The notes under the pieces are model-generated. The model saw nothing but the letters and a program-made list of their open reading frames with translations, was not told where the DNA came from and did not search any database. Both the position numbers and the translations under genes were made by a program. From Candidatus Omnitrophota bacterium (GTDB lineage Bacteria > Omnitrophota > Gorgyraeia > 2-01-FULL-45-10): DNA of 64,000 bases. How positions within the stretch are numbered: the stretch's first letter is position 1; every line of letters starts with the position of its first letter. Positions 2,365 through 58,741 of this stretch are shown here, piece by piece. The stretch spans positions 615 through 64,614 of the forward strand of contig JAGVGJ010000010.1 in assembly GCA_020057115.1 (NCBI GenBank), in the 5' to 3' direction.

Positions 2365-3732
2365 ATGCTGATAGATACGCATTGCCATCTGGATTTCAAG
2401 GATTTTGACAACGACCGGGACGAGGTGATCGCACGCGCCAGGGATGCCGGCATTCTCAAAATAATAAATGTCGCAAGCTCCATAGAGGGGACGCGTCGCG
2501 CATCAGAGCTTGCAAAAAAATATGAGGCGGTCTATGCGACGGTCGGGATACACCCTCATGCGGCCGAGACTGTTACGGACGAAGCGATCGATGAGCTTAA
2601 GAAAATAGCTAAAGAAGACAAAGTCGTGGCTGTCGGCGAGGTCGGGCTTGACTATTACCGCAACCTCGCGCCTAAAGATAGGCAGGCGGATGCTTTTAGA
2701 AGGTTTATAAGGCTTGCCGTGGAAACCGGCAAGCCTTTGATCATCCATTCAAGAGAAGCGGATAATGACATTTTGGGCATATTGCGCGAGGAGTGCGGCA
2801 ATACGGTAAAAGGCGTAGTCCACTGCTTCGCCGGGGATGAGAAGTTCCTTGAGGATTGTCTCGGCATGGGGTTATATATATCGTTTACGGCAAATCTTAC
2901 TTTTAAGAAGGCGGATAATTTAAGGACGGTCGCGAAACGCGTTCCGATCGAGCGCCTGATGCTCGAGACGGATGCGCCGTTCCTGGCGCCGCAGGATGTT
3001 CGCGGGAAGAGGAATGAACCCGCTTACCTGACGTACCTGGTGAAGGAGTGGGAAAACATATCGGGGCTTTCCGCCGAGGATATCGCAAGGATAACGACCC
3101 ATAATGCCAACAGATTATTCGGCCTGAACATCCGCGAAGATACGAGGATCGTTTATCCGATAAGAGGATCCCTGTATCTCAACATAACCAACCGCTGCAC
3201 GAACAATTGCTATTTCTGCGTCCGCAATTCCACTGAGTTCGTAAAAGGGCACAACCTGAAGCTCGACAAGGAGCCTTCCGAGCCGGACGTCCTGGCAGCG
3301 ATGGGCGATCCTAAGAAGTATAAAGAGATAGTCTTCTGCGGGTATGGCGAGCCGACCATAAGGCTGGATGAGGTAAAGTCTATTTCACGGAAGATGAAGG
3401 CGCTGGGGCTTAAGGTGAGGCTTGTGACCAATGGCCACGGCGATCTCATAAATAAGCGTCCGATAGCCGCTGAATTGTCCGGGCTTATAGACAGGATATC
3501 GGTCAGCATGAATGCCGAAGACGCGGATAAGTACGAAAAGATATGCGAGCCGGCCTTCGGAGCTCTTTCGTACAAGGCGGTCCTGGATTTCATAAAGGAT
3601 TGCGTCAATAACAAGATCGATGTCGAGGTCACTTGTCTCGACCTTCCGGAGATCGATATGGCGAAGTGCGAATCCCTCGCGAGGTCTCTTGGGGCCAGGT
3701 TCCGCCCGAGGTCATACGGGGTGGTCGGATGA
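2365..3732 (+). CDS. TatD-family metal-dependent hydrolase fused to a C-terminal radical SAM domain (TatD-associated radical SAM type)
   Basis: N-terminus MLIDTHCHLDF plus internal HxH, HCF and ETDAPFL motifs typical of TatD DNase/hydrolase. From about aa 265, NITNRCTNNCYFCVRN (CxxxCxxC radical SAM cluster motif) and FCGYGEP resemble the small radical SAM family normally encoded next to tatD. Here both parts are in one continuous ORF. Confidence 0.8.
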   Translation: MLIDTHCHLDFKDFDNDRDEVIARARDAGILKIINVASSIEGTRRASELAKKYEAVYATVGIHPHAAETVTDEAIDELKKIAKEDKVVAVGEVGLDYYRNLAPKDRQADAFRRFIRLAVETGKPLIIHSREADNDILGILREECGNTVKGVVHCFAGDEKFLEDCLGMGLYISFTANLTFKKADNLRTVAKRVPIERLMLETDAPFLAPQDVRGKRNEPAYLTYLVKEWENISGLSAEDIARITTHNANRLFGLNIREDTRIVYPIRGSLYLNITNRCTNNCYFCVRNSTEFVKGHNLKLDKEPSEPDVLAAMGDPKKYKEIVFCGYGEPTIRLDEVKSISRKMKALGLKVRLVTNGHGDLINKRPIAAELSGLIDRISVSMNAEDADKYEKICEPAFGALSYKAVLDFIKDCVNNKIDVEVTCLDLPEIDMAKCESLARSLGARFRPRSYGVVG

Positions 3733-39243: not shown

Positions 39244-42200
39244 TTGAAGACAAATAGACAAATAAAAAAATTCCCATTATTCATCAGGATCATTGCGACT
39301 ATATTACTGGTCACTTTTTTAGTCCAGGATATAGCGTGGGCGCATCCTGACCCATTTACAAAAGATCCTTCCCGTCATGCAACACTTGCTCCGGAGCCGA
39401 TGTTTGACCATCCGGAAGACAAAGTTACGGCAATTTCAACATTACTCCAATCAAAGATAGAAAGTCACGGCGTCTTTAAGGGTAATGTATCGCTTACTGC
39501 CGTTGAACACATACTGGATCTTGAGGATATCTCCAAATGGTGTGACGAAAACAAGATCGCTATTTCCACGGAGCACACGTTCACGGGCAAACCTACGGAG
39601 ATACGCCTGGTGATGCCGCACGGCCGCGTGCTGCGTTATTATGACCCAAATATAAAGACACACGAGAATAAGGATACGGCTGCTCGCGGTACGGTAGTTC
39701 GCATTAATGCCAATTTATCTAAGCAGGCCATCGAATCAAATGATTTTTACAAGAAAAACTCGCAGGTCGGCACAACCTCAACGCATGTTGATCTTCAGGC
39801 GGCGATACGAAAAGAAAAGTCATCCGCTCACATCTCTCCGTTCCAGAAAGTCCACCCATCTCTGTACGAGCGCATATCCAACTACGGATTGATCGCCGTT
39901 TCGGCAGGGCTTATCCTTGCGTATTGGCTCATAGATACGATAGCGTATATGTATGTATTCTCAGATTCAGACGTCCTCTCCGCCCTTATGCCAAGCGACC
40001 CGTACAGGTATTTTACACGCGCGGTAACCGCATGCATGATCTTTCTTTTTGGTTCGGTTATTCAATTTTTCGTGAACAGGAACAAGAAGAGGTCCATAGC
40101 GCTGTCGGAGAGAAACCATATGTTCTTCCAGGTATTTATGGATATGGGCGTGGCTGCGCACAGGCTGGACATTTCCGGTAATATACTGGATGTAAATACC
40201 AAGTGGTGCGAGTGGATGGGGTATAAGCGCGAAGAGGTCATAGATCGACCCATATTTGATTTTATAGACCCTGAGCATAGGGGCAATGCAAGGGACCGTC
40301 TACTTGGCAGGATAAGGGGATTTACTGAGGTCGAGATACCGCAGAGGACAGGCGACAGGAGATATATAAGGAAGGATGGCACGGCGATACTTTCCGACAC
40401 ATTCCATACGATATTAAAAGACAGGTTCGGCCGTCCGATAGAGATATTGACCCAATTCAGGGACATCACGGAACAGCGCAGTATGGAAAAGGAGCTTGAG
40501 AAGAGCTTGAAGGAGCTGAAGCTTGTGAGCGATACAGATAAGCTGACAGGCGCGTATAGCAGGAACTTCTGGGACAGGCAATTCAATGCCATACTTGAGG
40601 CATTCAGCCGTACGAAGATACCGATATCCGCGATAATGTGCGATCTGGACGATTTTAAAATCGTGAATGACACGCATGGTCATGCAACCGGAGATGAAGT
40701 TTTGAAAGAATACGCCAGGGTCATGCTAGCAGACCGCAGGAAGACAGACTTTGTCATACGAGCCGGCGACAAGGGAGACGAGTTCATAATAATCCTTTTC
40801 AATACAGATGCCAAGGGCGCGTCTATAGCGGCTAATCGTATTCTTGAAAATCTAGCCACGGATCATAATGTGTTAAGTCCTGACGGAAAGCCCATATCCA
40901 TAAGGGCGAGCATGGGGGTCGCCCAGTTCCGCGAAGGCCAGACGAAGGAAGATCTTGTAAAGGCGGCGGATGAGGCCCTTTATATTGCTAAACAGTCCGG
41001 AAAGAGCAAGGTAGTAGTGACGGCGCCTTCTTCCGCGCTTAGCGAAGGGGATGCTTCGCCTGAGAGCAAGATGGCCTTCAAGCGCGTAGTTGAGAATATA
41101 AGGACAAAGCCGCGCAAATATTCCGATATCACCATAAGCGAAAAGTTTATATCCAACATGGCAGAGATAAGAAACAGGCTCCGCAAACTTGGCATCGAGG
41201 ATATCCTTGGAGACTTAAGAGATCTGCGCGTTCTGACGACAGATGCGGTGGTCTTGGGGCACGGAGATTTTTCTGTAGGTTTTTATTCAAAGGCTGAGGA
41301 CGATAAAAATAATCTTATCTCCGTGCTCGGTGAAGACGGGTTCAATAAACTCTTCCCAAGGCCTACGCTCGTCCTGCCCAGGGAGATGTTCGATGAATAC
41401 GACGAGCTTATACAGCAGGATTACATACTCCACAGGATAATATGCCATTCCAAGGGGCATCATACTTCCATGTTCATACAGCAGGCGGTCTATCCCGAGA
41501 ATTACAATTATGGGGCGTATGAAGAGGAGGCCGGCAAAAAATATATGCCTGGCTGTAAGGGCGACCCCTCCAAGCCGTTTAAAGGGCGGACCGGAGAGGC
41601 TATACAAAATATCATAAACGCCATCACAAAAGACCCTATCACCACGGTAATTATGCATGACCTGAAGAACAAGATACAGGGAGGATATGTCCTCGACCTG
41701 GTATTGAATAAATACAAAAAAGATGGTTCGGCGTTATCCGAGGACCTGCTAATGCTGAAGAAATACAGAGATATGATGGGATCTATGGGCAAGACGACGC
41801 TATCATTCTATGCAAATGGCGCCAATGAGACCGAGGCCATCACGGCGCTCAGCGATATGCTCCCAGAGCTTAAGAAGATGACGACTGCCATCAAGTTAAA
41901 GCTTCGATACGGGGCATTCGACTATGACATGGAAGATAAAGAAAAAATAGCGATAGTCATAAAGAACAGCGAAGAAGGGGTTGTCCCCGGCATCAATACA
42001 GCCATCAATATGCTCGGCCGCTCTCCGGAAGAGATCGACGTAGGGAGATTCATAGAAGATATAATTTCCAGGGCAAAATCGATCTTTATAATACCGGAAA
42101 ACACGAGAGTGGATCTGTCCATACCAAGCGAAGTAAGGCGTCTCAGCGGTATCCTTACATACAAGCTTATACTAAAGCTGACGCTTGAAGAGCTTTTAAA

Positions 42201-45200
42201 GAATGCCTCAGTGGACGGTCAAGCCAACAGGATAAAGGTCTCGGTCTCTGCAACAAGCGAGGGAGAGCTTAAGGTCATGGTGAGAGATTACGGCAAGGGC
42301 ATGTCCGAGGAGAGCTTAAAACGGCTCTTCATGCCCGGTAATGCCGCAGTCGAAGATAAGCGTTACGGCTCGGGTTACGGCCTGGCTGTCCTCAAAGAGG
42401 CCATAGATTCCGTTGGGGGGACCATAATTTACGACAACAAGGTCACCGATGGGCCCTCTTTTACATTCACGCTTCCTTTGGATGCCCCGCTGGACAAACT
42501 TAAGCGGCGTGCGCTGAAAGAGCCGCTCATGGTCGCCATGTGCGGGCGCCGCGGGTCAGGCAGGAGCACGGTCGGCCGCATGATCGCAGCCACTTTCGGT
42601 TTGCGCTATGTCAACTCCGGGTTCATATTAAGGGCGGTGCTGTATAAGCTTATTGAGGCGAAGAAGAGAGGCTCCCCGGTTGATCTGGGTGATCCTAAAG
42701 CTGTCGGCGCATTCGCGCAGGATTTCTTTGAAAAGAAGAGGATAGACTATTCAAAAGAGCCTGTCGGGATAGATGGCGTGGATAGCGCCAGTATCCTTGT
42801 GGATGGCTTAAGCCTGCGCGACAAGATAAAGATGCTTATATCGAATAAAGAATTCACAGACGGGCAGTCGAACGAGGAGTGGATGCACCGAGTGGCCGGC
42901 TATAAGACCGTCGACGAAGCCCTTGAAAATTTTATAAGGACGCTTGCCGTAGAGACAAAGGCATACGGCAAGTATAACGGCATAATAAGGATGGCTTCGG
43001 ACCCTGTCAAGAACGAGGATATTATCAATATAATGCTCGACGCCCCTACCTATATAAGGGCCAAGAGGTCCAATACCCCCATAGAAGAGATAGAGAAGCT
43101 TGATAGCGCTACCGGCAGAAAGAGCATGACCGGCAGGTATGCCAGGGTGGACATGATGATAGATACTGCGCACCTTACTGTGCGGCAGGCAGCCATACAG
43201 GCCATACGCTACATAGACGCAAGGGTGCTGTCGAAGGAGGCTGCCGATGGATTTATAAGCCAGGGCGACGCGGCATTTACAAGGATGGCTGAAAATATCG
43301 CATCCGGCAAGGTCGTGGATGCGACGCACGACCCGAGAATAGTGCTTGATATAGAGCGCCTGAAGAACCGCTTGGGTTTGCGTTCGATCGACGATCTCAT
43401 GGGAGCAGGATCGGCAGTGCGCATACTCGTGACCAATGATGTCGTGATAAACGAAAAAGATTTTGCGCTGGGGCTCTATTCCGAATCGCCTGCCGTCAAG
43501 GCGCGGCTTATCCAGGTAATGGGAGAGGAAAAATTTAAACTGGCTTTTCCCAGACCTACCCTGGTATTGACGACCGAGGTGCTTCTTAATAAAGATGAGA
43601 ATATAAGGCAGGAATATATCTATCATGAGGCGATATGCCATGCGAAAGGGCATTATGAGGCCATCCTCGCCCAACAGAAGGTATTCCCGAAAAATTATAC
43701 GGGCGACTGCGAGGAGGGAGCAAACGGCCTTAAGTATGTGCGGGGTTTTGCCGGAGTGAAGGATAAGCCGTTCAAAGGCCGGTTAGGGAGCGCTCTTACA
43801 GCCACGATCAAGATGGCTACCGATCCTATAATAAGAGAGGTGCTGCATGATCTTAACAGTAAGTTCAGTACCGCGGGCGGCTTTGCTTTATACTCCGTAT
43901 TAAAGCGGTATTCGGAGGAAGAGATCGAAGCAGACAAAAGGCTCAAATTGCTTAAAGAATATTGTGCCCTGACGCTGGAGCTCAGGAACGCGTGTATCGG
44001 TTATCTTAGCGGGGAAGCGACCATGTCGGATGTCATGGATATATTTAATGAGCACCTGAAGAGGTTCACGTCATTGACCAGCAGCATTACCGAAAGATTT
44101 AATAACAACGAATATAACGATACCGAGAGGTCCAAGAACGGCATGAAAGTGCTGGTCGAGTATAGCGGCGTATCCATAAACCTCATGAACAGGGCCATGA
44201 ACTGGATAGGCAGGTCTATGGACTCTGTGGATGTAGAAGGCTATCTTGCAAATATCATAGGATCATACAGGGCATCGTTAAAAGAGAGCGCCACGCACGG
44301 AAATAAGTATGTAGAGATAAATGACGCCAAGATATCTCCCGAAGCAAGGCGCCTGAAAGATATCTTCACCTATAAAGAAGTCTTGCGCATGACCATAGAG
44401 GAGCTCGTAAAGAATGCTTTAAAATACAGCGGTACGGATAGTATCGATATAGAGGCATCTCTCACCAAGGACGGCGATCTTGAGTTCAAGGTCATAGACC
44501 ATGGTAAAGGCATCCCTGCGGATACGCTGAAAAAATTATTCACCCCGGGTTTCACGGAAGCTAAAGATTCCAGGATAGGAACAGGCTACGGCCTCGTGTC
44601 TCTCAAAGATGCCATAGGATCGGTAGGGGGCTCGATAAATGTAGAGAGCAAGGTCGGCGAGGGGACCACCTTCATATTTACTCTGCCGGCTAACGGAGAG
44701 ATAGGCGCCCTTAACAGGCCCAAGCTCTATGACCCGATCATAGTAGCCGTGAGCGGCTTGAGAGGGTCGGGTAGGACGGTGGTGTCGCGCTGGATCGCTT
44801 CAAGGCTGGGCTTGAGATATATAAATCCGCGGTTCATGATGAGGGCCATGGTAGCGACGCTTCTCGAAGCCAGAAAGAATGGCCGCGCCATCGACCTGAA
44901 AGACGGGGATGCCGTAGCCGCATTCGCCGAAGAGTTCTTCGGCAAAAGGAGGCTCGACTATTCTGTTGAACCTGTAAAGCTGGACGGCGTCGATACTTCT
45001 GTTCCGGATGAGAAGGACGGTCTCTCGCTGCGCGACAAGATAAAGACAGAGATAGACGACGGCATTACCGATGGAGAACCGAATACCACCATACTTGACA
45101 ATATAGCGCACTATAAAGGGGTCCAGGCAGCGCTTGAGAAGTTCATAAAATCGATCGCAAGCGAAGTAAGGGCATCCGGCAAATATAACGGCGTCATCCG

Positions 45201-48200
45201 GCCCGGGACGGAACCCGTAAAAGATAATGAAGTCATAAATATAATGCTGGACGCTTCGTCCTATATAAGGGCCTCCAGGGCCAATAGGGGCATGGATTGG
45301 ATAGCGTCAAAGGACGAACTCACTGACAGGAAAAATATGGCCGACAAGCATCCGTATATTGACATCATAGATACTTCATACAGCACGGTCGAGGAGACAG
45401 GAGCGCGCGCGCTGGGTTATATAATGGGACATATCCCTATCACAGACGGTATGGTGAGAAAAGGCGACAAGGCGTTCCGCAGGATGGTAGGCAATGTCAT
45501 TGCCGGGAATTTCGCGGAGACAGGGCTCATGGTAGCGCCTGACCTCGAGAATGTCGCGAAGATAACAGGGGCCTCATGCATGGAAGAGCTGATAGGAAGC
45601 GATAAGCCGCTCCGCGTCCTTGTCACCAATGCCGTTGTCTTGAACCAGTCCGACTTTTCTTTCGGGTTCTATTCGCATGCTCCGCCCATAATGGCAAAGA
45701 TAATCTCTTTAGTGGGCGAGGATACCTTTAATAGCACATTCCCGGAGCCGACACTTATCCTATCGGCCGAGATACTCGCCAATCCCAGTCCTCAGATCCG
45801 CCAAGAACACATCCTTCACGAGATATTCTGCCATACTAAAGGCCATTCTCCGGCTGTCTTCGAAGAGCAGAGGCTCTTCCCCGGAAATTATAGTGCCGGT
45901 ACGTTCGAAGAGCGCGGCAGTAAAAAATATATAGCAGGCTACGCCTGGAATGAGGCGATGCCTTTTGACGGCGCGTTCGGGGATGCCCTACGCCAGGTGA
46001 TCGACAAGAAGCTTGCCACGACCACGACCGGAGAATTTGCCCGGCCCAAGGGGAAGGAACATACGAAGACCAGCGCCGCCTTTATGACGGCCGATCTGAT
46101 CGCGCAGGCCGAGAAACTTAAAACGACGAGCATGCAGGAGCAGGCATGTGCTCTTATATTGAAGGCCTTGAGCATCGTCGCGGAATCAGACCAGCCTGTG
46201 CCGTACGAAAACATAGCAAATATCAGGGCTTTTATCTGGGACGAAAGATCCAGCGGGCACGTGCCGGTGAATTTCGATGTCCTGTTGCCGGTCATCGATG
46301 AATATATGAATGACTGCAACCTGACGAAATTTCGCATAAAACTGAGCGCTTTGCGCAAGCACATAGAGTCGACATATACCAATATCTTGGCGATGTATAT
46401 CTATAAACAGCTGTCTCATCTATTTTTCAATTCGCTCCCGACCATCACGAGGTTTACCATATTGATATCTTCCAGGAAATACCCGAACGATCCGTCGCTT
46501 AAAGAGATGATAGAGCTCTCAAGCGAGATGGATCGTTCCATGCGTAACCTCGGCGATGAATCGAACAGGTTAAGGAGCGTCGATTCTCTTATGAATTTTC
46601 TTACGGTATCCGATGAATCACTTTCAAGACAAAGGGCGCTCCTAGATGCGTTCAGAGCCGAGCATCCGGAGCTGCTGCGTCTCGACAGCCGCCTCAGGGG
46701 CAACATAGAAGCTATAAACGCTGAGCTCGAGAAGCTCGCGAGAGCGCGGAGCTTGCTGGCGCTTACGCTCGGTAACAAGCCTTCGCTCGAAGAGATAGCG
46801 GAGAGGGTCGATCTTGTAGTCGCCAAGATGGAGACCGGCGTTAAGACGCCGCGCATCGCATGGGTGGGCGGTCTGGTGCCATATTCCAATACTCTCTCCA
46901 CGGTGAAGGAAGGCGAGCCGGTCAAGGTAAGCATGCGTGTATATATACCGGGCTTTACTCCTCAGGAGATAGACTCAAAAACAGGTATCAAGAAATTTGC
47001 CGAAGGCTTCATAAGGGCCGAGATATGGACGAATGCCATATCTGATCCGGAGGCCAGTTCGGTGGAGGCCTTCAAACCGATAGATATGCGTTTTGACGGC
47101 GTAGGAGGGCGGGAAGGGCATGATTACATATTTACAGGCTTTATCCCTGCAAAATATGCCAGCCAGATAGACAGTAATGGCAGGCCGAAAGAATTCCGTT
47201 TTACGGCCCGAGCCGCTATAAAGAATGAGCTCGGAGGTATAGAAGGGGAATGGGCATATTCCGATAATCCGTATAAGACGAATGTCAACTGGCATGGCGA
47301 CGGAAGGATCGTCGTTCTGTCCAGGGATCCGGAAGAGGACCGCGGCAATCTGGTTGGGAGGGTCTTCAGCGATACGAACGGCAAGGATCAGGTGACTCAT
47401 AAGATATCCGGAAGGATCGAGAAGGGCTTCCTCAACAACGACTACCTCGTCCTTTACGGCGAGGATGGAAAGGTCTTATACGCTAAGGATGGCAAAGAGG
47501 CGCGTGTTAAACTTGAAAGTCCGGCCGTTAAGACAGATCTTGGCTATATTGTATACATGCTTGAGCCAAATGACCATATTCACGGTTTCGCCAGCCGCGA
47601 TAAAGTATTTATGGCAGATTTCATGTTCTATGACAGGGTCCTTTCGTATCATGAGATGAAAGAGGCATACTATAGCGTCCATCCGGATGAGGTTCCTGAA
47701 GGCATAGAACCGCACACTTATTTAAGAGGTTGCGGCAAAGGCATTAGGAACACGGCCGCTTATGCGGTACGTTACGAAAACCTTGATAAAAATTTTACCG
47801 CCGGTCAGCTTAAAACATGGATGAAAAATTCTCTGGCGCCTGAGGATAGGGGCACAGATTCCGAGATGCGGCTCATCGAACATAACGCTTCCAAGGGCAA
47901 GAAGGGCATGGAGCTTCTGTATGGTGAGCAGGACAGGGTATTCGGCCCGAAAGCCAACATGAGGGCCACGGAAAAGATATCAGGGAAGATAAAGAACAGA
48001 AATGATTATAGCCTAAGCAGGGACAAGGTCGTCCTTGTGGTAGAGTTGATGAAATTAAGGCCCGAGGCATTCCCTAACAGCATCGATGCAACCGTCAAGA
48101 TGTTGGGCGAAGGTTTTGATGTATTCAAGAAATATGATTTCCAGGGGCATACGCCTGTTGATGCGGCGCATTATCATTCGGACTACAAGAAGTGGCATGG

Positions 48201-51200
48201 AGCCTTGCTAAAGCTTATAGAATCCGATCCGTCCGTCCCGGCGCATTTTGATAGCATCTCAATGTCCTCCTTGCTTGAAGCCTTGCGCGATCAATACGGT
48301 TATATCAATGCCAAACTCAATTGGGCATGGGCTATTGAGGGCATGTGGAAAGATACGCTTGACGGTATGGAAAAGTATCCCAGAGAGAGCCAGATGGCGA
48401 GGTTCAAGGGCTTGGGCATATTTAAGCGGCACGATGATTTCATGAAGGATTATGCGGGTTCATATTATATAGAGAATGACGATGCTGTTAATAAGGCTAT
48501 GAAAGCGGTGGAAGAGACGCTAGGTTTTATAAATTCACGGGTGCCGTCGATATTTGTTAAGGACGAAAAGCCTGATGGGTCTGCTCCGGTAGCCGCCATA
48601 AAGAAGAATGCTCCACTGGGAGAACGTGCTATCAATTTTATGAAGAGCGGCAGGGCCAGCGAGATCGCCCAGTTCGTAGCGCTCGCTTTCATAATCTCTA
48701 TCGCATTATCCTGGGTTCTTCCGGCTAATTGGCTCACATTGTCTATAGCTATCATAGTTCCTATTACGCTCTTCTTCTTGTTGCCATGGACATGGAAGAC
48801 ATTGCTTGTGAATGTCGCGATAAGCGTCGTACTCTGGTATTGGCTGCCCTTGCCATGGTTCGGGCTCTCTATGGCCATTCTTACGATCGCAAACGTCGCT
48901 AAACACAACATAAAATTAAAGCCCCATCTTAAGCCTGAGGCTGTCCCTGCGGAAAGATCGGTTTTAGAGGAGAAGAAAGCCGAAAAAATATTATCCGATA
49001 TAACCATAGATAGAGAAATATTGGCCCGCATCCTGAAAGCGATAGAAGTTTCCAAAGAAGGGACCGATAAGGCCGATGCCAATGATGCGTTAAAGAAGCT
49101 CGACGATGCCGATATCATAACGCAGCTATTCGATTTCGGTTCAGGGACAAAAGGGTATGAAAAACCCGTTAAAGAAACCAAGGAGAAGCTGCGGCTCGGC
49201 GTAAGAAGGGCGTTCGATGATATCAAGGGCGGTCTCAACATAGAGTACAAGGATATGATAGAGCGCCTCAAGAACTGGAAGAATGAGAATGATGAAGCTT
49301 TAGCCGGAGCTCTCCAGGACCTGTCCCAGGAAGTCATGGATTTTATTATAAATTCGAATCATGCGGCAGACAATAAAGTCGACAGGCTTGCCGTAAGAGA
49401 GCTTATAGCCGAAGAGTGCGGGATAGATGCCGCGAGGTCAGAAACTATAAGGCTAAGGATGGCGCTGGATGTGCAGAAGGATGACGTAGCTTCAAATGAG
49501 ATGATAGGATCCGCATCAGCGAATGACCATTTCTTCCTGGCCGCTCTCCAGCTCAAATTTGGGAATTACATCAAGGCAGAGGAGAGCTTCGGACGCGCAG
49601 TAGACCTTGACCCGACCAATGCCGATTACAGGCTTGCGCTCGGGCTCGTTGAACATATATTTAGAAAATGGATGGCTGCGCGGACAGCTTATAATGCTGC
49701 TTCGAACTTCTATGATATCGAGGCCGGTGTATCGAAAGCCGCAAAGGCCAAGAAGGAACTTGCGGAATTCCTGAGGGAGAAAGCGCGCGCCGAAGCGCCT
49801 CTCATTATGGAGAAGAAAACCAACGGCAACTTGATCGGGAAACTATTCATAGACAAAGCCGCTACCGTTCAGATCAAAGAGGGCGTTATAGCCAAAGAAG
49901 AGATGGGCATCCTTAAGTTCTTCGCCCCCAATGGAGATATCCTTTATACCAAGAGCGGCGTTCCGGCGGCAGTGAAACTGACCGGCCAGATAATAAAGAC
50001 AAAGTCAGGCCACCAAATAAAGATCGTAGAGGACAATGAACATATACGCGGGTTCGCAGATAAGGATAATGCTTATCTTGCAGACTCCTTCGCAAAGAAT
50101 CCCATCGCCAAATACCATGAATTACAAGAGTCACATTACGCCGCCCACCCTGAAGAACTTCCCAAAGGCGTCAATTCCCATACCTATATAAGAGGATGCG
50201 GCAATGATGCCAGAGAAGCTTTAAGGACATCAAGAAAGAAAGATCTCCAGGATATCACCGCAGACGACCTCATCAAATACTTGAAGAAGAGGCTGCCGAA
50301 AGAAAGGCATAATGAGAATGAGTTCAACCTCATCAGATATAACGGCGAGCAAGGTAGAAAAGGGCTTGACCTTATATATGGCCTGCAGGATAGGGAATTC
50401 GGAGTAGAGGCAAATGAGCTATTCAGCGATGCGCTTATTATATTAGAGAAGCCTGAGCCTGCCGCCCAAGCTGCGCCTAAGACACAGCTAAGGACTGCTG
50501 ACGAAGTATTGTTCCGCGACTATTTTGAGGACCTGTTCGAGAAAAATATAGAAATGTTCATGCTCCTGTCGGTAAGGATGATGGGTAGCGATGCCGAAAA
50601 GAAGAGCGTTTTAAAGCGCCGGAATGCGCTCGTGCAGGAGCTTCTCGCGCTGACCGATAAATACAGGTCGCAGGATTTCGCAAAAGAGGAATACAGGAAA
50701 GTAGTCACATTTGTAAATGAAAAGATATTAAGGACTGTCGAGTTGGTAGACGGTGACAATGAACCGGCTGCTGCCTGGTGCTTGTTCGGCGCCATAAATG
50801 TGATAAGCGATACGCGCCTTGAGATGCAGGCCAAATGGCTCTCGGGAATAAAAGAACGCCGCGCCAGGATCTGGCGAAACGGCGGCATACTCACATATCC
50901 GAGAGGCGGCTATCGCATATTGGAAGGCTCGAAGCGCACTGTTATCGACCGCACGGAAGCCACGTTCAGCTCCATGTGGGAGGTTATGCGCTCGCTGTTC
51001 CATCAGGTGGACGGAGAGCTTGAAGAGAAGCGGAAAGTGTCCGGCCTGATATATGAGATAGACGGTTTCATGCTGGAGCTTTTCGACAAGAACTATGAGC
51101 TTAATGACGATGAGCGCGCCGCTATGAGCAAAAAGATCGGCCTCCTGGCAGCTTCCATGGCAAAGGAGAAAGGCGAGCTGAAGTATGAAGATAAGCGTAT

Positions 51201-54138
51201 AGCCAAACTTCTTTTGAATGCATCAGGCATGATCACGCGGCTAGGCGATCGTCACCTGAAGAGCGTCAAGGGCTTCCTTGAAATGGCGATGAGCCATCTC
51301 AGGATCAGGGAAGCGGATGCGATATCTATAGCCACTCATTGCAATAATTCCGGTCTCAACTGGGTATGGGTAGAGTCTTTAAAACGGGATTCCAGGATCA
51401 GGAACTTGGCCATTTCAGCCCTGAAGAGCATAGAAAGAAAAGACCGCAGGTCCGCGCTAGGCGCTATAAAGGGTATCACAAGATTAAATGAGATAAAGAA
51501 TGAGCCGGAATATAAGCCCATTTATAATATCCTCTGGCCTGTAGTAAAAGCCATAGAGGAAAATAAAAAGCCTCTCGAAAGCGCTATAGCCCCGCTCAAC
51601 CTCGTGTTGGAAAAATATAATAATTCGCGCCTTCTGCACAATATGCTTAGAGAATACAGGGATAAGCTTGTCGAAAAAGAGATGGCGTCGCTCGAACCTA
51701 TTGACAGGGATGCGTTCCTGAAAGATATATTTGACATGTCTGCAAAACAGAGCGACTTCCCCAAAACACCTAATCCGGTCCAGGCCCGCGCCAGATGGTG
51801 GGCAAAGCTACACCAGGCGGTGAATATACCGCTTATGATAGACGATCCTGTCAAACGCGGAGAGCGCATCCCTAATCCGGTATTTGAGGCGGCTTCGGAC
51901 TATGCGTATATCCTGGAATTCGGGAAATTGGATGAGCTGGTGAAGATGCCATTCATGCAGGCCGCTAAGCTCGGTGTGACAAGGCCGTATCTGGAGAATA
52001 TACTGAAGCGCCGGCCTTATAGCCATTTGATCCGTACGGATATGCCGAACCTTGTAGCGGCGCTATCCAAAGATTATGGCCTTGATCCTGACCAGGCAAG
52101 ACTTCTTGATGGATGTATCAGGATAGAAGAGTTTAGCGGCGCCACGCCTGCGGTTACGGCCGGGCCTCAGGTTCCTTCGATAGTTTCGCCTTTAAAGGTG
52201 CTTGATGGTATGCGGATAACAGATGAAAAGAGAGAGTCCTTCAGGCTGCGCATAGGGCGGTCGCTGAATAATAATAAATACTCGGACACCATATTCATCA
52301 CAAGAGAATCGGATGGCGAGTCGGTAGGCATGATAGAGACCATAGTGGCTGAGGATAGCAAAACCGGCTCGTGGTCGATAGAGCTTGGCCTTGCCAAGAT
52401 AAATCAAGACGTAAAAGGAACGAACTATAGGAATAGAGGCATATTCCTTAGAGTTATGAACCTCTTGGGCAAGGTCATACCCGAAGGGTCTGAGATGAGC
52501 ATAACCTCTGTCGAAGAGACCAGGACATTAAAGACCCTTGCCGGAGGAAAGAGCTGGTATCAGACCATGATGGGCAAGACATTATACAGGAGCGGCTGGA
52601 AGCTGCAGGAACTATTCATATTCGACAGGGGCAGCTCCAGTACTTATGTCTCTTTCGACAGGCTGGAGAAATGGAAAAGCGATTTTCCTGTAGATAAGGG
52701 CGGTTTTCAAAGCGCGCTCGCTCAGGCGATAAAGGATATCGACAAGACCGATGCGATAGATGATGCTACCGTAGGCGCGGTGTTATCTAAGATAGATAGG
52801 AGCGCAGTGGCTGAGGGCAAGGCCCGTATTGTGCAGCAAGCCGATAAAGGCATTCCTTCCGACAAACAACTTGTATGGATAAACATCCATGGTTTCGTTG
52901 ACCAGGCCAAAGGGCCTTTAGAGAAGAGGATACGGGAATCGATCGCAAAACAAGGTCTTATAAAGAATATACATGATGTCAGCTTGGGAGTGCTTCCCGA
53001 TGAAGTGCGTTCGCACGTGAAGAGCGTATTGGAAGACGAGGCCAAGCCTGTAAGCAATATAGTGCTATCGGGACATTTCTTTGCTACGATCTCGGAATAC
53101 CCCGGATGTATCGAGAGCGCGATACGGGGCGTCTGTGATGCGCTTGGGACCAGCGGCTATAGGATCATCCTGCCGCTCGACCTGATAGATAATAGCGATG
53201 AGACGGTCACGCCCGCCGATCTGGTATTTCTTTTGGGATTCACCCAGTTAGATAAAGAGAATAGCCTCGTATATATAGATGATGCTCCTGTGGCCAAATG
53301 GAGCGAGGCCAAGGCGGATAAAGGCGCTCCTGTCGAGGTCAGGTTATATACCACAAGTGAAAAGATGAAGGCGTATCTTGAAAAGAACGATGTCTCTGCG
53401 GGATCTTCGCGTGCGCCGGAGAGCAAAACATTGCCGGTGCCGAAAGAATCTCCCGAAATATTGTTCGCCAGATTTATGTCGAAGGCGGATATGATAAAAT
53501 ATTCCGCAGGCCAGGCGCTCGAAGGGTTTAGGCCGGGAGAATTCATAAAAGAGAAGGGCCTGATACTTTACGCCGACAGCATCCTTGAACATGGCGCTGT
53601 TGCAGAACTTGAAGATGCCTTGAAGAATACAGGGATATTTAATGAGATGAACATAGTGGTATATGGAAAGAAGCCCGGCATGGCCTGGCTCCTTGAAAAG
53701 ATAATAAGAGGGGCGAATAGCACAGTCAATGTAATAACCGTAAGCGAGGCAGATCTTATAGAAAAGTCCGGCACCAAAGAGATATACATAGATGAGACAA
53801 AGGAGCTTGATTCTATAATCAAATATGCCGGAGCCAAGGGGATAAATAACGGGAACCTCCTCGGCGTCATAAAGGGCTCTACGGCAGCCGCAAGCATAGG
53901 GAAGATAAGAGAGCTCTTAAGCGAGCGCAAGGTCCCGGTCGTCTCATTCGAATCCGCTGATGGCGTATACTCATTTGCAGCGGCCATCGGCATATTAGCA
54001 AAGTTAAAGAATAACATCGACCCGAAGATGAACAACTACTTCGCGGTACTTCCTCCGATAAAGAAGCTTTCGATAGAGTTGGACAGGACCTACCGGGAAT
54101 ACAGGGAAGCGCTCAAGAAGCTCCTCTCAAGCGCCTAA
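39244..54138 (+). CDS. giant multidomain membrane-associated signalling protein (4,964 aa). Domains: N-terminal TM, PAS, GGDEF-like, 2x [novel HExxCHxKGH domain - HATPase_c - cytidylate-kinase-like] supermodules plus a third novel-domain copy, 2x a second novel domain, an internal 3-TM cluster, TPR-like region.
   Basis: Uninterrupted 14,895-nt reading frame (apparent TTG start). A hydrophobic N-terminal anchor and two to three TM helices lie at 39880-40075. PAS spans about 40110-40500. The GGDEF-type domain spans about 40540-41010, with RAGDKGDEF at 40759-40785. Large internal repeats with about 2.2 kb periodicity lie at 41050-46000. HATPase_c N/G1/G2 boxes (ELLKNA...DYGKGM...GSGYGL and ELVKNA...DHGKGI...GTGYGL) lie at about 42150-42480 and 44350-44690. 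Cmk-like domains (CGRRGSGRST...GLRYVNSGFILRAV and SGLRGSGRTV...GLRYINPRFMMRAM) lie at about 42524-43120 and 44735-45300. Three TM helices lie at 48655-48900. Confidence 0.85.
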   Translation: MKTNRQIKKFPLFIRIIATILLVTFLVQDIAWAHPDPFTKDPSRHATLAPEPMFDHPEDKVTAISTLLQSKIESHGVFKGNVSLTAVEHILDLEDISKWCDENKIAISTEHTFTGKPTEIRLVMPHGRVLRYYDPNIKTHENKDTAARGTVVRINANLSKQAIESNDFYKKNSQVGTTSTHVDLQAAIRKEKSSAHISPFQKVHPSLYERISNYGLIAVSAGLILAYWLIDTIAYMYVFSDSDVLSALMPSDPYRYFTRAVTACMIFLFGSVIQFFVNRNKKRSIALSERNHMFFQVFMDMGVAAHRLDISGNILDVNTKWCEWMGYKREEVIDRPIFDFIDPEHRGNARDRLLGRIRGFTEVEIPQRTGDRRYIRKDGTAILSDTFHTILKDRFGRPIEILTQFRDITEQRSMEKELEKSLKELKLVSDTDKLTGAYSRNFWDRQFNAILEAFSRTKIPISAIMCDLDDFKIVNDTHGHATGDEVLKEYARVMLADRRKTDFVIRAGDKGDEFIIILFNTDAKGASIAANRILENLATDHNVLSPDGKPISIRASMGVAQFREGQTKEDLVKAADEALYIAKQSGKSKVVVTAPSSALSEGDASPESKMAFKRVVENIRTKPRKYSDITISEKFISNMAEIRNRLRKLGIEDILGDLRDLRVLTTDAVVLGHGDFSVGFYSKAEDDKNNLISVLGEDGFNKLFPRPTLVLPREMFDEYDELIQQDYILHRIICHSKGHHTSMFIQQAVYPENYNYGAYEEEAGKKYMPGCKGDPSKPFKGRTGEAIQNIINAITKDPITTVIMHDLKNKIQGGYVLDLVLNKYKKDGSALSEDLLMLKKYRDMMGSMGKTTLSFYANGANETEAITALSDMLPELKKMTTAIKLKLRYGAFDYDMEDKEKIAIVIKNSEEGVVPGINTAINMLGRSPEEIDVGRFIEDIISRAKSIFIIPENTRVDLSIPSEVRRLSGILTYKLILKLTLEELLKNASVDGQANRIKVSVSATSEGELKVMVRDYGKGMSEESLKRLFMPGNAAVEDKRYGSGYGLAVLKEAIDSVGGTIIYDNKVTDGPSFTFTLPLDAPLDKLKRRALKEPLMVAMCGRRGSGRSTVGRMIAATFGLRYVNSGFILRAVLYKLIEAKKRGSPVDLGDPKAVGAFAQDFFEKKRIDYSKEPVGIDGVDSASILVDGLSLRDKIKMLISNKEFTDGQSNEEWMHRVAGYKTVDEALENFIRTLAVETKAYGKYNGIIRMASDPVKNEDIINIMLDAPTYIRAKRSNTPIEEIEKLDSATGRKSMTGRYARVDMMIDTAHLTVRQAAIQAIRYIDARVLSKEAADGFISQGDAAFTRMAENIASGKVVDATHDPRIVLDIERLKNRLGLRSIDDLMGAGSAVRILVTNDVVINEKDFALGLYSESPAVKARLIQVMGEEKFKLAFPRPTLVLTTEVLLNKDENIRQEYIYHEAICHAKGHYEAILAQQKVFPKNYTGDCEEGANGLKYVRGFAGVKDKPFKGRLGSALTATIKMATDPIIREVLHDLNSKFSTAGGFALYSVLKRYSEEEIEADKRLKLLKEYCALTLELRNACIGYLSGEATMSDVMDIFNEHLKRFTSLTSSITERFNNNEYNDTERSKNGMKVLVEYSGVSINLMNRAMNWIGRSMDSVDVEGYLANIIGSYRASLKESATHGNKYVEINDAKISPEARRLKDIFTYKEVLRMTIEELVKNALKYSGTDSIDIEASLTKDGDLEFKVIDHGKGIPADTLKKLFTPGFTEAKDSRIGTGYGLVSLKDAIGSVGGSINVESKVGEGTTFIFTLPANGEIGALNRPKLYDPIIVAVSGLRGSGRTVVSRWIASRLGLRYINPRFMMRAMVATLLEARKNGRAIDLKDGDAVAAFAEEFFGKRRLDYSVEPVKLDGVDTSVPDEKDGLSLRDKIKTEIDDGITDGEPNTTILDNIAHYKGVQAALEKFIKSIASEVRASGKYNGVIRPGTEPVKDNEVINIMLDASSYIRASRANRGMDWIASKDELTDRKNMADKHPYIDIIDTSYSTVEETGARALGYIMGHIPITDGMVRKGDKAFRRMVGNVIAGNFAETGLMVAPDLENVAKITGASCMEELIGSDKPLRVLVTNAVVLNQSDFSFGFYSHAPPIMAKIISLVGEDTFNSTFPEPTLILSAEILANPSPQIRQEHILHEIFCHTKGHSPAVFEEQRLFPGNYSAGTFEERGSKKYIAGYAWNEAMPFDGAFGDALRQVIDKKLATTTTGEFARPKGKEHTKTSAAFMTADLIAQAEKLKTTSMQEQACALILKALSIVAESDQPVPYENIANIRAFIWDERSSGHVPVNFDVLLPVIDEYMNDCNLTKFRIKLSALRKHIESTYTNILAMYIYKQLSHLFFNSLPTITRFTILISSRKYPNDPSLKEMIELSSEMDRSMRNLGDESNRLRSVDSLMNFLTVSDESLSRQRALLDAFRAEHPELLRLDSRLRGNIEAINAELEKLARARSLLALTLGNKPSLEEIAERVDLVVAKMETGVKTPRIAWVGGLVPYSNTLSTVKEGEPVKVSMRVYIPGFTPQEIDSKTGIKKFAEGFIRAEIWTNAISDPEASSVEAFKPIDMRFDGVGGREGHDYIFTGFIPAKYASQIDSNGRPKEFRFTARAAIKNELGGIEGEWAYSDNPYKTNVNWHGDGRIVVLSRDPEEDRGNLVGRVFSDTNGKDQVTHKISGRIEKGFLNNDYLVLYGEDGKVLYAKDGKEARVKLESPAVKTDLGYIVYMLEPNDHIHGFASRDKVFMADFMFYDRVLSYHEMKEAYYSVHPDEVPEGIEPHTYLRGCGKGIRNTAAYAVRYENLDKNFTAGQLKTWMKNSLAPEDRGTDSEMRLIEHNASKGKKGMELLYGEQDRVFGPKANMRATEKISGKIKNRNDYSLSRDKVVLVVELMKLRPEAFPNSIDATVKMLGEGFDVFKKYDFQGHTPVDAAHYHSDYKKWHGALLKLIESDPSVPAHFDSISMSSLLEALRDQYGYINAKLNWAWAIEGMWKDTLDGMEKYPRESQMARFKGLGIFKRHDDFMKDYAGSYYIENDDAVNKAMKAVEETLGFINSRVPSIFVKDEKPDGSAPVAAIKKNAPLGERAINFMKSGRASEIAQFVALAFIISIALSWVLPANWLTLSIAIIVPITLFFLLPWTWKTLLVNVAISVVLWYWLPLPWFGLSMAILTIANVAKHNIKLKPHLKPEAVPAERSVLEEKKAEKILSDITIDREILARILKAIEVSKEGTDKADANDALKKLDDADIITQLFDFGSGTKGYEKPVKETKEKLRLGVRRAFDDIKGGLNIEYKDMIERLKNWKNENDEALAGALQDLSQEVMDFIINSNHAADNKVDRLAVRELIAEECGIDAARSETIRLRMALDVQKDDVASNEMIGSASANDHFFLAALQLKFGNYIKAEESFGRAVDLDPTNADYRLALGLVEHIFRKWMAARTAYNAASNFYDIEAGVSKAAKAKKELAEFLREKARAEAPLIMEKKTNGNLIGKLFIDKAATVQIKEGVIAKEEMGILKFFAPNGDILYTKSGVPAAVKLTGQIIKTKSGHQIKIVEDNEHIRGFADKDNAYLADSFAKNPIAKYHELQESHYAAHPEELPKGVNSHTYIRGCGNDAREALRTSRKKDLQDITADDLIKYLKKRLPKERHNENEFNLIRYNGEQGRKGLDLIYGLQDREFGVEANELFSDALIILEKPEPAAQAAPKTQLRTADEVLFRDYFEDLFEKNIEMFMLLSVRMMGSDAEKKSVLKRRNALVQELLALTDKYRSQDFAKEEYRKVVTFVNEKILRTVELVDGDNEPAAAWCLFGAINVISDTRLEMQAKWLSGIKERRARIWRNGGILTYPRGGYRILEGSKRTVIDRTEATFSSMWEVMRSLFHQVDGELEEKRKVSGLIYEIDGFMLELFDKNYELNDDERAAMSKKIGLLAASMAKEKGELKYEDKRIAKLLLNASGMITRLGDRHLKSVKGFLEMAMSHLRIREADAISIATHCNNSGLNWVWVESLKRDSRIRNLAISALKSIERKDRRSALGAIKGITRLNEIKNEPEYKPIYNILWPVVKAIEENKKPLESAIAPLNLVLEKYNNSRLLHNMLREYRDKLVEKEMASLEPIDRDAFLKDIFDMSAKQSDFPKTPNPVQARARWWAKLHQAVNIPLMIDDPVKRGERIPNPVFEAASDYAYILEFGKLDELVKMPFMQAAKLGVTRPYLENILKRRPYSHLIRTDMPNLVAALSKDYGLDPDQARLLDGCIRIEEFSGATPAVTAGPQVPSIVSPLKVLDGMRITDEKRESFRLRIGRSLNNNKYSDTIFITRESDGESVGMIETIVAEDSKTGSWSIELGLAKINQDVKGTNYRNRGIFLRVMNLLGKVIPEGSEMSITSVEETRTLKTLAGGKSWYQTMMGKTLYRSGWKLQELFIFDRGSSSTYVSFDRLEKWKSDFPVDKGGFQSALAQAIKDIDKTDAIDDATVGAVLSKIDRSAVAEGKARIVQQADKGIPSDKQLVWINIHGFVDQAKGPLEKRIRESIAKQGLIKNIHDVSLGVLPDEVRSHVKSVLEDEAKPVSNIVLSGHFFATISEYPGCIESAIRGVCDALGTSGYRIILPLDLIDNSDETVTPADLVFLLGFTQLDKENSLVYIDDAPVAKWSEAKADKGAPVEVRLYTTSEKMKAYLEKNDVSAGSSRAPESKTLPVPKESPEILFARFMSKADMIKYSAGQALEGFRPGEFIKEKGLILYADSILEHGAVAELEDALKNTGIFNEMNIVVYGKKPGMAWLLEKIIRGANSTVNVITVSEADLIEKSGTKEIYIDETKELDSIIKYAGAKGINNGNLLGVIKGSTAAASIGKIRELLSERKVPVVSFESADGVYSFAAAIGILAKLKNNIDPKMNNYFAVLPPIKKLSIELDRTYREYREALKKLLSSA

Positions 54139-56261: not shown

Positions 56262-58741
56262 ATGAATATGAAAAAACTAACCATAGCGTTAATGATCCTC
56301 GCGGCGATCGGCATATTTGGATGCCTGTCGACCGCCTATGCCGAAAATAACACATGGGATGGTTCTGAATCTAATCTATGGAGTGCCCAGGCAACTGGAG
56401 CCTGGGTCATGATCCTAACCATGCCGGCTATGGCGGTGAAGTTGCCAGCCTAACATCATCTTATTCAGATCCGGTCCTTAACATGACTACCCCCGCACTC
56501 TCCGGCCTTACTATAGATTCAACGAACCTTACGGCGTCGGCAAGCGGTTTTACGCTCAACGTAGGAAGCGCCTCTTCATCCGCCAATATGATACTTAATA
56601 ACACGGCAGACACGCAAATGAATATTGGCAGTTCGGACTCTAGTTACAACTTTACCACGAAGGTATATGGCAACCTTACCGCAAATGATGACAAGATCAC
56701 CGTGTACAGCACTATAGACTTGATCACAGCTCCAAATAGTATTGAATTCAGGAACCCCGGCGGAGCGATATTTAAAAATGTAATTATGGAATTTAATGGC
56801 GGCAATACTAGTCGCATCGTTACCATGTATAACAATACCACGATAGATGGGAATCTGACCCTGCGGAATAATTTCTCAGGGAACGGAGGCATTAGTCTTA
56901 TGGGCTACGGCTCCCCGATCGTGGCAGTTATCGGTAATTTCGACATGCCATATTCAAGCGCCAACGCTGGTTTTAACAGATTCGGAGACGGCGGGCATAA
57001 TTTAAATTTTAGGTTAGGCGGTAACCTAACCGTGGGGGAGTATTATTCCGCAGCCCCTACCACCGAGATACTATTAGATGATATCACTTTCAATGGGACT
57101 GGCAACCAGGCGGTGAATATTACGCCAAACAATAGCATCGTCGGCACAAACCAGAAATCCGTATTCATCGTTAATAAAGATAGCGGCGCTGTGGCTTATG
57201 AGACAGGCAGCTATGCTCAAAAATATCTGCCCTGGTATATTAATAAAGGAGAGCTGGCCGGCACTATTGCGTCCGGCACTATAACGTCCGGAGCTATAAC
57301 TGCATATAATCATTTTGCCGCAACAACAGACGCGGTATTTAGCGGATCGTTATCGTCCAATCCGTCAACCGTAACATTAGATCCTATTTACTCAAATATA
57401 GAAGTTGATAATCCGAGCTCTACGGGGTTCACAAGGGTCGCATCGTTGCTTGGAGCAGATTATAAAGCCCCGGGCGGTGAGCATTTTAATGATCTTACGC
57501 TAATCACAGGGGCTGTTGGTTCCGGAGCTGGAGTTGGTCATGTCGCTTTTTACGGAAACGCAAGCACTAGCGATATCGATCTTTACGTAGACGGAACATT
57601 TAAGGTAGACAGGCCTGCCGGAGCCACGAATACCCTGTATGTCGATGGGTCAGCTAATAAACCGACGCTTCAGGTCTATGACGCCGTTTTTACAGGCACA
57701 AGCGGGACTTTTTCTGTAGGATCTGCATATGGCATGGACATAAATATAAGTAATGATTTTACGTTGAGTTATGCCAATGGTTCTATTAACAACACCACTT
57801 TAAAGTTTAACGGCGCTGACGAACAATTGTTTACATATACGGCGGGCACTATTCACGCTACTTCCTCGTTGGTGGTAGACAAACCGTCAGGCACGCTTAA
57901 ATTTATGAGTGATAATAAGACGAGCAATGCCTCGCTCACGGTTTCAAGCGGCACACTCGATCCTAACGGTAATACATTTACCGTCTATCAAAAAAATATC
58001 TCTATAGGAGCTGACGGCGTGATCCAGGGTAAAGGTACTATCGGTATTACGCAAGATGTTCCAAAGTCTTATACCTTCACCAATAACGGCAAGGTCATAG
58101 CCGATGGCGGCGGGGCTGACAGCACGCTAACCATCAACACTACGGGCGCGATCAAAAACACTTTTGATAATACCGGAGATTCCGGATGGTATGCTTTGAA
58201 TAAGGGCATGCTCGCGCTGCCCGGCCAGAGCATTACTACCGGATCGAATAAGACCGTCTATTGGGGTGAAGAGGCTGATGCCGATGCATTGCCTGATATG
58301 GTCAATAGCGCCAAGCTTACCTTTAACAATGTAAGTTCGGTAGGTACTTTCAGCATCAACCTTATGGCTTCGGATAGAAGCGATATCGAGGTCTCTCTGG
58401 ATAATCAAGCCTATGCGAGTTATTGGGATGTCAATTTTACCGGCGCCTTCAATTATGTTGACATGATATTTAAATATGACGATTCTATGGTTCAATCCCT
58501 TGGTATTGAGGAATCGACGCTGAAGTTCTACCACTTTACCGGTGGGGAATGGGTCGATGTCACCACACAGCTTGATACCGAAAATAATCTCCTCTATGCG
58601 TCTAATGTTACTTCGTTCAGCGATTTCAGCGCGCAAGGTAACATTACAGCCAATGTCCCCGAGCCCGCAACGATGGTGAGCTTATTGAGCGGACTGGCGA
58701 TGATAGGTTTCAGGAGAGTGCATAGATCAGGTAAGAAATAA
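56262..58741 (+). CDS. PEP-CTERM sorting-signal surface protein 1, with an apparent frameshift between signal peptide and body
   Basis: C-terminus VPEPATMVSLLSGLAMIGFRRVHRSGKK is a PEP-CTERM motif followed by a TM helix and Arg cluster. The Ser/Thr/Asn/Gly-rich body reads in one frame from 56378. A canonical signal peptide (MNMKKLTIALMILAAIGIFGCLSTAYA, SD AGGAG upstream) is encoded 56262-56350 in a different frame that terminates at 56453. Confidence 0.6.

Follow-up and report, generated by a model that had tools for sequence, protein, structure and literature searches.

The question whether the very large proteins predicted in the bacterial phylum Omnitrophota function as intact chains or are cleaved into smaller products may be illuminated by one gene in a 64,000-nucleotide stretch of a Candidatus Omnitrophota genome (assembly GCA_020057115.1, contig JAGVGJ010000010.1, positions 615 to 64,614 of the forward strand; hereafter the window, in whose numbering all coordinates are given). 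In passages of preprints such proteins are put at more than 85,000 and at up to 147,155 amino acids, and main-text passages of one of them describe cleavage as suspected and the cleavage points as unknown, with C39 and S8 the only peptidase domains named as candidates (10.1101/2023.11.21.568195). The gene in question is an open reading frame (ORF) on the + strand at 39244-54138, with a TTG start, that encodes 4,964 amino acids. Inside it a supermodule of about 2.2 kb recurs, and at the head of each copy stands a domain belonging to a family undescribed at the sequence level, for which a structural model suggests a minimal zincin-like fold. This domain gives a concrete handle on the question of one chain or many pieces, as it is small, recurs at module junctions, resembles proteases in its fold, and comes with a putative active site and a junction motif that are both defined. 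The reading we favour, with confidence that is evenly balanced, is that of a cytoplasmic metallohydrolase of a new minimal-zincin family, which acts on its carrier protein or on a bound partner in the processing or release of modules.

The supermodule repeat was apparent on comparing the protein with itself. Module-versus-module BLAST aligned residues 599-1337 (nt 41038-43254) with residues 1338-2076 (nt 43255-45471) at 39.7% identity over 736 columns (E 7e-173), masked chunk-wise self-BLAST paired residues 599-1348 with residues 1338-2081 (E down to 3e-82), and a third, partial copy at residues 2077-2261 (nt 45472-46026), to which the chunk-wise comparison assigned residues 2077-2259, was 38-40% identical (E-values 1e-27 to 1e-42). 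With a period of 739 residues (2,217 nt) the copy number is about 2.25, in good agreement with a preliminary description of the locus, which had put a unit of roughly 2.2 kb at some 2.3 copies within the giant gene. The same description had taken the duplication to be old and not an assembly repeat, and we came to the same conclusion because only 19-28-nt in-register matches, spaced 2211-2214 nt apart, survive between the copies at the DNA level, a pattern that rules out an assembly artefact or a recent repeat. An unrelated protein of 5,736 residues, P0005, contains a single module that is 33-35% identical to each window module over its full length. The 2.2-kb unit is, then, a conserved supermodule that was duplicated long ago, and its full order is a zincin-like unit of about 190 residues (N-terminal extension and core), a histidine-kinase core and a cytidylate-kinase-like domain. 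The succession of an HATPase_c domain and a cytidylate-kinase-like domain after the first two copies, part of the preliminary description, was recovered with Pfam.

The three copies differ in how much of this order and of the characteristic motifs they retain. In module 1, the N-terminal extension (residues 599-658; 41038-41217) is degenerate at 41038-41100, with SSALSEGDASPESKMAFKRV in place of the DGFIxQGE motif, and the zincin-like core (residues 659-792; 41218-41619) carries HRIICHSKGH at 41431-41460, in which the ligand-like His, Cys and His are kept and an Arg occupies the position of the putative catalytic Glu. The histidine-kinase core that follows (residues 799-1085; 41638-42498), as defined by Pfam and the module alignment, comprises an H-box-like MHDLKNK, a helical region and HATPase_c, and leads into the cytidylate-kinase-like P-loop domain (residues 1086-1332; 42499-43239), with a Walker A sequence, GRRGSGRS, at 42544-42567 (residues 1101-1108). 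Directly after this domain begins the N-terminal extension of module 2 (residues 1333-1390; 43240-43413), whose ADGFISQGDAAFTRM motif is intact at 43240-43284. The zincin-like core of module 2 (residues 1391-1523; 43414-43812), on which the structure model was built, has HEAICHAKGH at 43624-43653, and is succeeded by a histidine-kinase core (residues 1524-1822; 43813-44709) with an H-box-like LHDLNSK and HATPase_c, and by a cytidylate-kinase-like domain (residues 1823-2066; 44710-45441) with Walker A GLRGSGRT at 44755-44778 (residues 1838-1845). Partial module 3 (residues 2067-2254; 45442-46005) consists of an N-terminal extension, with TDGMVRKGDKAFRRM at 45442-45486, and a core with HEIFCHTKGH at 45817-45846, after which the kinase domains are absent. 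All these features lie on the + strand. The starts proposed earlier for the LRVL strand were exact for the first and third copies (41224 and 45610), and that of the second was found at 43417 rather than 43422. The earlier motif positions pointed to the right places in general, but that of copy 1 (41437-41466) had to be shifted to the coordinates above, and a "43814" in that of copy 3 was a typing error. An invariant HExxCHxKGH, which the preliminary description had also proposed, did not survive the comparison, as the Glu varies among the copies.

Where else the zincin-like domain occurs was asked of several databases. Neither the three window copies nor a set of 28 family members had a Pfam match at E<=10, NCBIfam and PHROGs likewise gave no matches, and PDB sequences were matched neither by the three copies nor, at E<=10, by a 28-sequence profile. 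The earlier claim of a novel domain without a known family can accordingly stand for sequence and must give way at the level of fold, where the domain is zincin-like. Searched exhaustively with HMMER, 1.84 billion representative proteins yielded 43 carriers at E<=1e-3 (29 of them at E<=1e-10), 38 being 1,000-7,357 residues long and five shorter, and the named carriers came from metagenome-assembled genomes (MAGs) of Candidatus Omnitrophota, except for two MAGs labelled Chlamydiota. Local iteration found 75 instances of the domain in these 43 proteins, up to six per protein and some of them adjacent; closer relatives have a "long" form, and in distant ones the form is compact, two helices of the N-terminal half being missing. 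Neither phages (50,697 records) nor plasmids (72,556 records) gave a tblastn match, and a scan for the pattern DFxFGFYSHA found a single genome locus and no metagenome locus, while a motif-based pattern scan added 11 metagenome loci with the domain, in most of which the ORF is open at one end of the stored sequence or at both. Stand-alone genes, whose existence the preliminary description had suggested checking, were not found among the representative-protein carriers or the metagenome loci: the domain occurred only inside large multidomain proteins, the smallest complete ORF having 818 residues and the shortest matches being fragments on short contigs. The family is real and rare.

The carriers bring the domain together with a wide range of neighbours, i.e., PEP-utilising, PAS/GGDEF, TPR, M3/M32 peptidase, alpha-amylase, HD, LOG, 6-phosphogluconolactonase and GNAT domains. 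In P0007 (residues 346-696 and 1035-1331) it is combined with canonical M3/M32 metallopeptidase and alpha-amylase regions, and in P0004 (residues 838-1100) with a PEP-utilising domain plus PAS-GGDEF; the order of PAS-GGDEF followed by the zincin-like domain is common to P0004 and the window protein. The conserved unit is about 190 residues long, and not the 130 or so of the preliminary description, since a conserved N-terminal extension of about 55 residues precedes the domain instances. This extension starts with DG[FY]IxQG[ED]xAFxxM, about 50 residues N-terminal to the first strand, and as a regular expression the motif had 36 matches in 133,371 residues, 31 of which were ahead of a domain instance. 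Throughout the family the junction motif lies approximately 105-130 residues before the motif His and has variable linker sequence ahead of it, and the 190-residue unit begins where the preceding enzyme domain ends. The junction motif is a possible cleavage or docking site.

The conservation of the core motif, which for the family reads EY[LI]xHExxCxxxGH...QQxxFPx[NH]Y, is best described with the residue numbers of window copy 2 (position 1 being residue 1391 of the protein) and with counts over those instances that cover each position (at most 74). Most highly conserved are E67 (72/74), Y95 (71/72) and an Asn or His at position 94 (71/72), followed by the putative site residues H71 (65/74), C75 (59/73, with Glu in a further five) and H80 (65/70), and by F91 (61/71), E72 (57/74), G79 (51/71), and Q87 and Q88 (53 instances each). 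The preliminary suggestion that the His/Cys cluster is probably a metal-binding or active site has thus stood the comparison with other genomes, in which the His, Cys and His are conserved. The CHxKGH part of it did not prove family-wide, as the second His and the Lys are specific to the window protein and to close relatives of it (14/72 instances have a His after the Cys, where Pro is commoner, and 8/71 have the Lys), and the motif of the family is H-E-x-x-C-x-x-x-G-H. With His after Cys that infrequent, and with the context cytoplasmic, a heme-c-like "CH" site was ruled out; a deaminase-like H-A-E/PCxxC site was unsupported by the fold matches. The complete set H-E-[C/E]-H is present in 56 of the 74 instances, whose carriers are otherwise less than 50% identical, and in seven more, including window copy 1, the three ligand-like residues are kept and the Glu is not. 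Eleven of the 74 are degenerate, nine lacking the first His and also the Cys, and two being truncated or changed at the final position. In P0002, H, E and C are gone from four of the six copies, in which the fold-defining E67, F91 and Y95 persist. Judging from the alignment, the exchange of Cys for Glu argues for a metal site over a role in packing, because the replacement is another metal-ligating residue.

An answer to what kind of domain this is came from structure prediction. AlphaFold2 given only the three window copies returned a model with a predicted local distance difference test (pLDDT) score of 44, but 28 instances sufficed for a confident one (pLDDT 96, predicted template modelling score 0.86, with all five models scoring at least 93 in pLDDT). 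The chain begins with three short strands, after which come two helices and one more strand; a long helix at 62-78 and a helix at 80-90 are next, and a hairpin and a C-terminal helix form the end. H71, E72 and C75 are on the long helix, G79 breaks it, and H80 opens the next. Foldseek searches with the model had as their top matches minigluzincins, Ste24 and SPRTN, with E of about 1, values not significant on their own, and against viral models SprT- and IrrE-like proteins recurred as equally weak matches; the best fold matches were all peptidases. As in zincins, the model has a mixed beta-sheet and after it the "active-site helix" and another helix, from which additional residues of the site come. 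HEXXH itself was not found, the sequences having H-E-x-x-C (59/73) or H-E-x-x-E (5) and in no instance a His at +4, and the candidate third ligand is a His at +9 (65/70), with a Gly before it (51/71). From the model we conclude that the domain has a minimal zincin-like fold and forms a divergent branch of a known superfamily. H-E-x-x-C would then be the equivalent of HEXXH, and H71, C75 and H80 would converge on one site, as suggested by the periodicity of the helix and the turn at the Gly.

From this follows the reading that we favour, in which metal binding, catalysis and substrate are what we infer, whereas the analysis shows the repeat, the family with its pattern of conservation, and the class of fold. 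A metal ion (Zn2+ or Fe2+) would be coordinated by the two His and by the Cys between them, or by the Glu that a few members have in its place; the Glu beside the first His would be the general base, as in HEXXH zincins; and where the zincin motif has its second His there would be a Cys thiolate, with the Gly-His turn supplying the third ligand. Situated at the junctions of enzyme modules, the domain would act on its carrier protein or on a bound partner and so process or release modules, a plausible processing role drawn from its confinement to very large, multi-enzyme Omnitrophota proteins and from its location at module junctions. The zincin-like domains of the giant protein should be cytoplasmic, a prediction based on their lying after the N-terminal hydrophobic segments and among nucleotide-dependent domains, and such a location would suit a thiolate ligand. 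By their sequences, window copies 2 and 3 look competent, and copy 1 looks inactive but still metal-binding, because of the change from E to R and the loss of the N-terminal motif. A narrower form of the proposal makes these domains active endopeptidases, zincins with a thiolate in the site, whose cuts would fall in cis at the module junctions of Omnitrophota giant proteins, with a candidate site at or near DGFIxQGE on the N-terminal edge of each unit; this form we consider rather unlikely.

Several points weigh against the metallohydrolase proposal. We know of no characterised zincin peptidase with a Cys at the position of the second His, a full-text literature search on "HEXXC" gave nothing relevant, and zinc would be a weaker Lewis acid with a thiolate among its ligands. 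The match of the motif to HEXXH and the clustering of H71, C75 and H80 are deductions from helix periodicity and the Gly turn. The seven instances with ligands and no Glu, and degenerate runs such as that in P0002, fit a structural or binding role too. In the window protein and P0005 the domain comes directly before the kinase dimerisation helix, the usual position of a sensor domain. Finally, the cleavage site is only a candidate, and DGFIxQGE may simply be part of the fold.

The position before a kinase made it necessary to look closely at what follows the domain. HATPase_c was matched by Pfam in two stretches of the giant protein (2e-39), after copies 1 and 2, and the kinase core of module 2 matched the PDB sequences of ZraS, BceS, WalK and HK853 at 1e-10 to 6e-9, with its N, G1 and G2 boxes (EELVKNA, DHGKGI and GTGYGL) aligned with those of the solved kinases. 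The HATPase_c domain is a bona fide one. An H-box-like HD[LI][KN][NS]K is present about 10 residues after the zincin-like domain in three modules, i.e., both complete ones of the window (41656-41676 and 43846-43866) and that of P0005; no HisKA profile matched the giant protein in Pfam at E<=1, and the distance from the H-box-like His to the N box of HATPase_c is about 70 residues longer than in HK853. The P-loop domain that ends the module is "kinase-like" and not a demonstrated member of the cytidylate kinases, because Cytidylate_kin in Pfam, which scored 41.4 bits (cut-off 26), matched two stretches of which the better is aligned to no more than positions 1-44 of a 211-position profile, the match of the module 2 domain to the PDB cytidylate kinase 3r8c, with the P-loop aligned, has an E of 5.7e-4, and the Walker A Lys is an Arg. 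As this Arg (GSGR) is found in both window copies and in the P0005 module, it looks like a conserved variant rather than decay.

These kinase cores are what makes a redox or metal sensor a serious alternative, for the supermodule of the window and P0005 in particular. The His/Cys/His zinc site would here be the input domain of the histidine-kinase core behind it, kinase activity would respond to Cys oxidation or to the metal being lost or gained, and a protease-like fold would have been exapted as the scaffold, in a loose parallel to the signal transducers BlaR1 and MecR1. Such a function would agree with the three independent modules in which an H-box-like motif and then HATPase_c follow so closely, with the predicted cytoplasmic setting beside PAS, GGDEF and ATP-dependent domains and after N-terminal transmembrane segments, and with window copy 1, where the loss of the Glu next to an intact H, C and H could be tolerated by a site that only binds. 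However, the clear arrangement is limited to the window protein and P0005, and most instances have no kinase behind them, their neighbours being PEP-utilising, PAS/GGDEF, TPR, M3/M32 peptidase, alpha-amylase or HD domains; a pure sensor would not need the Glu beside the first His, which is kept in 57 of 74 instances; and a Pfam scan found no receiver domain or other kinase target encoded in the giant protein. On balance we think a sensor unlikely, if far from negligible.

Quite unlikely, in our estimate, is a non-catalytic structural zinc domain, a pseudo-protease that serves as a connector or docking unit between enzyme modules. It would account for the multiplicity of the domain, with as many as six copies in a protein and some side by side, for the P0002 copies that have given up H, E and C and maintained E67, F91 and Y95, and for the conservation of E67 and Y95 above that of the putative catalytic Glu, but not readily for the retention of the full H-E-[C/E]-H set in 56 of 74 instances across such dissimilar proteins, nor for a Cys-to-Glu exchange that preserves ligand chemistry rather than packing. 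The last possibility, which we hold to be very unlikely, leaves the chemistry of the favoured reading intact and changes the substrate: the domain would be a metallohydrolase acting on something other than protein, e.g., a YbeY-like RNase, or else an amidase or an enzyme akin to deformylase for a small molecule or cell-wall fragment provided by the neighbouring enzyme modules. A set of Cys, two His and Glu is that of peptide deformylase, and the carriers do collect metabolic enzymes (LOG, 6-phosphogluconolactonase, PEP-utilising, GNAT); against this, peptidases alone make up the best fold matches, and PDB sequence and Pfam searches found no similarity to the YbeY or deformylase families.

The remainder of the giant protein, which is identical in sequence to the database protein P0001 of a 98,931-bp contig (labelled in IMG only as "diguanylate cyclase/PAS"), is arranged around the supermodules. 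From the N-terminus its order is hydrophobic segments, PAS, GGDEF, the 2.25 supermodules, a pair of second repeats and an unannotated C-terminus. The hydrophobic segments are at residues 10-28, 216-234 and 260-278, with a topology that is ambiguous under the positive-inside rule. PAS (residues 303-412) and the GGDEF diguanylate cyclase (residues 430-588) are encoded directly 5' of module 1 on the + strand at 40150-41007, and were recognised as PAS_9 (2.1e-11) and GGDEF (9.5e-35) in Pfam and as TIGR00254 (6.8e-39). The second internal repeat, of about 215 residues, lies at 47311-47973 and 49792-50433 (residues 2690-2910 and 3517-3730), its copies being 37% identical (E 2e-44) with a conserved signature, [FY]HExxE...HP..P.G.N.HTYLRGCG, and no Pfam match; it is present also in P0022, and three times in P0033. 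Its layout of a strand and then H-E-x-x-E echoes the zincin-like domain. Homology of the two was unsupported, with an hhalign probability of only 0.6%. The two copies flank TPRs and a cluster of three or four hydrophobic helices at 48664-48909 (residues 3141-3222), and because of this mid-protein cluster the C-terminal third, a long part of which has no annotation, may be on the opposite side of the membrane.

The genes around the giant gene are largely those of a bacterial chromosome. On its 5' side are truB, ribF, pnp, dut, uppP, ftsK, a rodZ-like gene, rimO, pgsA and pgpA, and on its 3' side ligT/thpR, cinA, recA and htrA. The RecA protein is 81-94% identical to its closest relatives, and all of these that bear an organism name are RecA proteins of Candidatus Omnitrophota, which places the window in that phylum. 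A mobile-element origin is ruled out by this housekeeping setting and by the lack of phage or plasmid matches. Two other downstream genes, at 56378-58741 and 58802-60445, encode a 787-residue protein without a Pfam family and a 547-residue protein with a C-terminal PEP-CTERM sorting motif.

What is new in the zincin-like domain is a motif with Cys in place of His, together with its being restricted to giant proteins of Omnitrophota, and what is known is the class of its fold. Should cutting in cis be true, the giant genes would encode bacterial chromosomal polyproteins that are matured by their own repeated internal proteases, and HExxC...GH would be a new type of metallopeptidase active site. 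A conserved H-E-x-x-C...G-H on a zincin scaffold would be an unusual ligand set for the enzymology of metalloproteases, and regions that are now dark in dozens of giant proteins would become annotated with a profile made from the 75 instances.

Among known systems, the closest in size and fold are the minigluzincins (proabylysin, projannalysin and selecase), soluble minimal zincins of about 100 residues that are related to the catalytic domains of M48 and M56. They are stand-alone archaeal proteins, whereas the zincin-like domain is embedded in bacterial proteins of hundreds to more than 7,000 residues and adds the N-terminal extension of about 55 residues, a beta-hairpin and a C-terminal helix. 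Minigluzincins have a canonical HEXXH with Glu as the third ligand, in contrast to H-E-x-x-C-x3-G-H here, and no conserved Glu was found at the gluzincin spacing, positions 93-95 being x-[NH]-Y; searches of PDB sequences with the 28-sequence profile, and of Pfam, showed no sequence similarity to minigluzincins, M48 or M56. The layout is also reminiscent of the metzincin HEXXHXXGXXH. Relative to that motif and to the HEXXH...H of SprT/Wss1 (WLM), a Cys replaces the second His, and the third His comes directly after the Gly at +9, compared with +10 in metzincins; the family has no conserved Met that could mark a Met-turn, and no metzincin was among the top fold matches. Peptide deformylase, in which a Cys and two His are the ligands and the Glu of HEXXH is catalytic, is a precedent for a thiolate site that can support amide hydrolysis. 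Its ligand set and general base are like those we propose, but its fold and motif order differ, its EGCLS and GxGxAAxQ motifs are absent from the zincin-like domain, and no sequence or fold match connected the two.

As regards function, the conceptual parallel is with the embedded releasing peptidases of polymorphic toxins, of phage and plasmid polyvalent proteins and of MARTX-type toxins, in which a small peptidase domain, in some cases repeated, is embedded in a very large multi-enzyme polypeptide and is predicted to free the modules. A phage "large polyvalent protein associated domain" was among the weak Foldseek matches (E of about 1, not significant). The carrier here is encoded by a chromosomal gene among housekeeping genes, and phage and plasmid records contained no tblastn match to the domain. 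The nearest counterparts of the carrier itself are the archaeovorin-type giants as they are presented in main-text passages of the preprint cited above (10.1101/2023.11.21.568195), among whose annotated domains in those passages the zincin-like domain does not appear. Those giants have tens of thousands of residues, a downstream PilZ gene and SecA-like domains, whereas the window protein is far smaller at 4,964 residues, no PilZ gene was found among its neighbours, and a Pfam scan gave no SecA-like match. Set beside these differences are the same phylum, Omnitrophota, and a shared repertoire of HATPase_c, GGDEF, TPR, PEP-utilising/PPDK and LOG domains and transmembrane segments.

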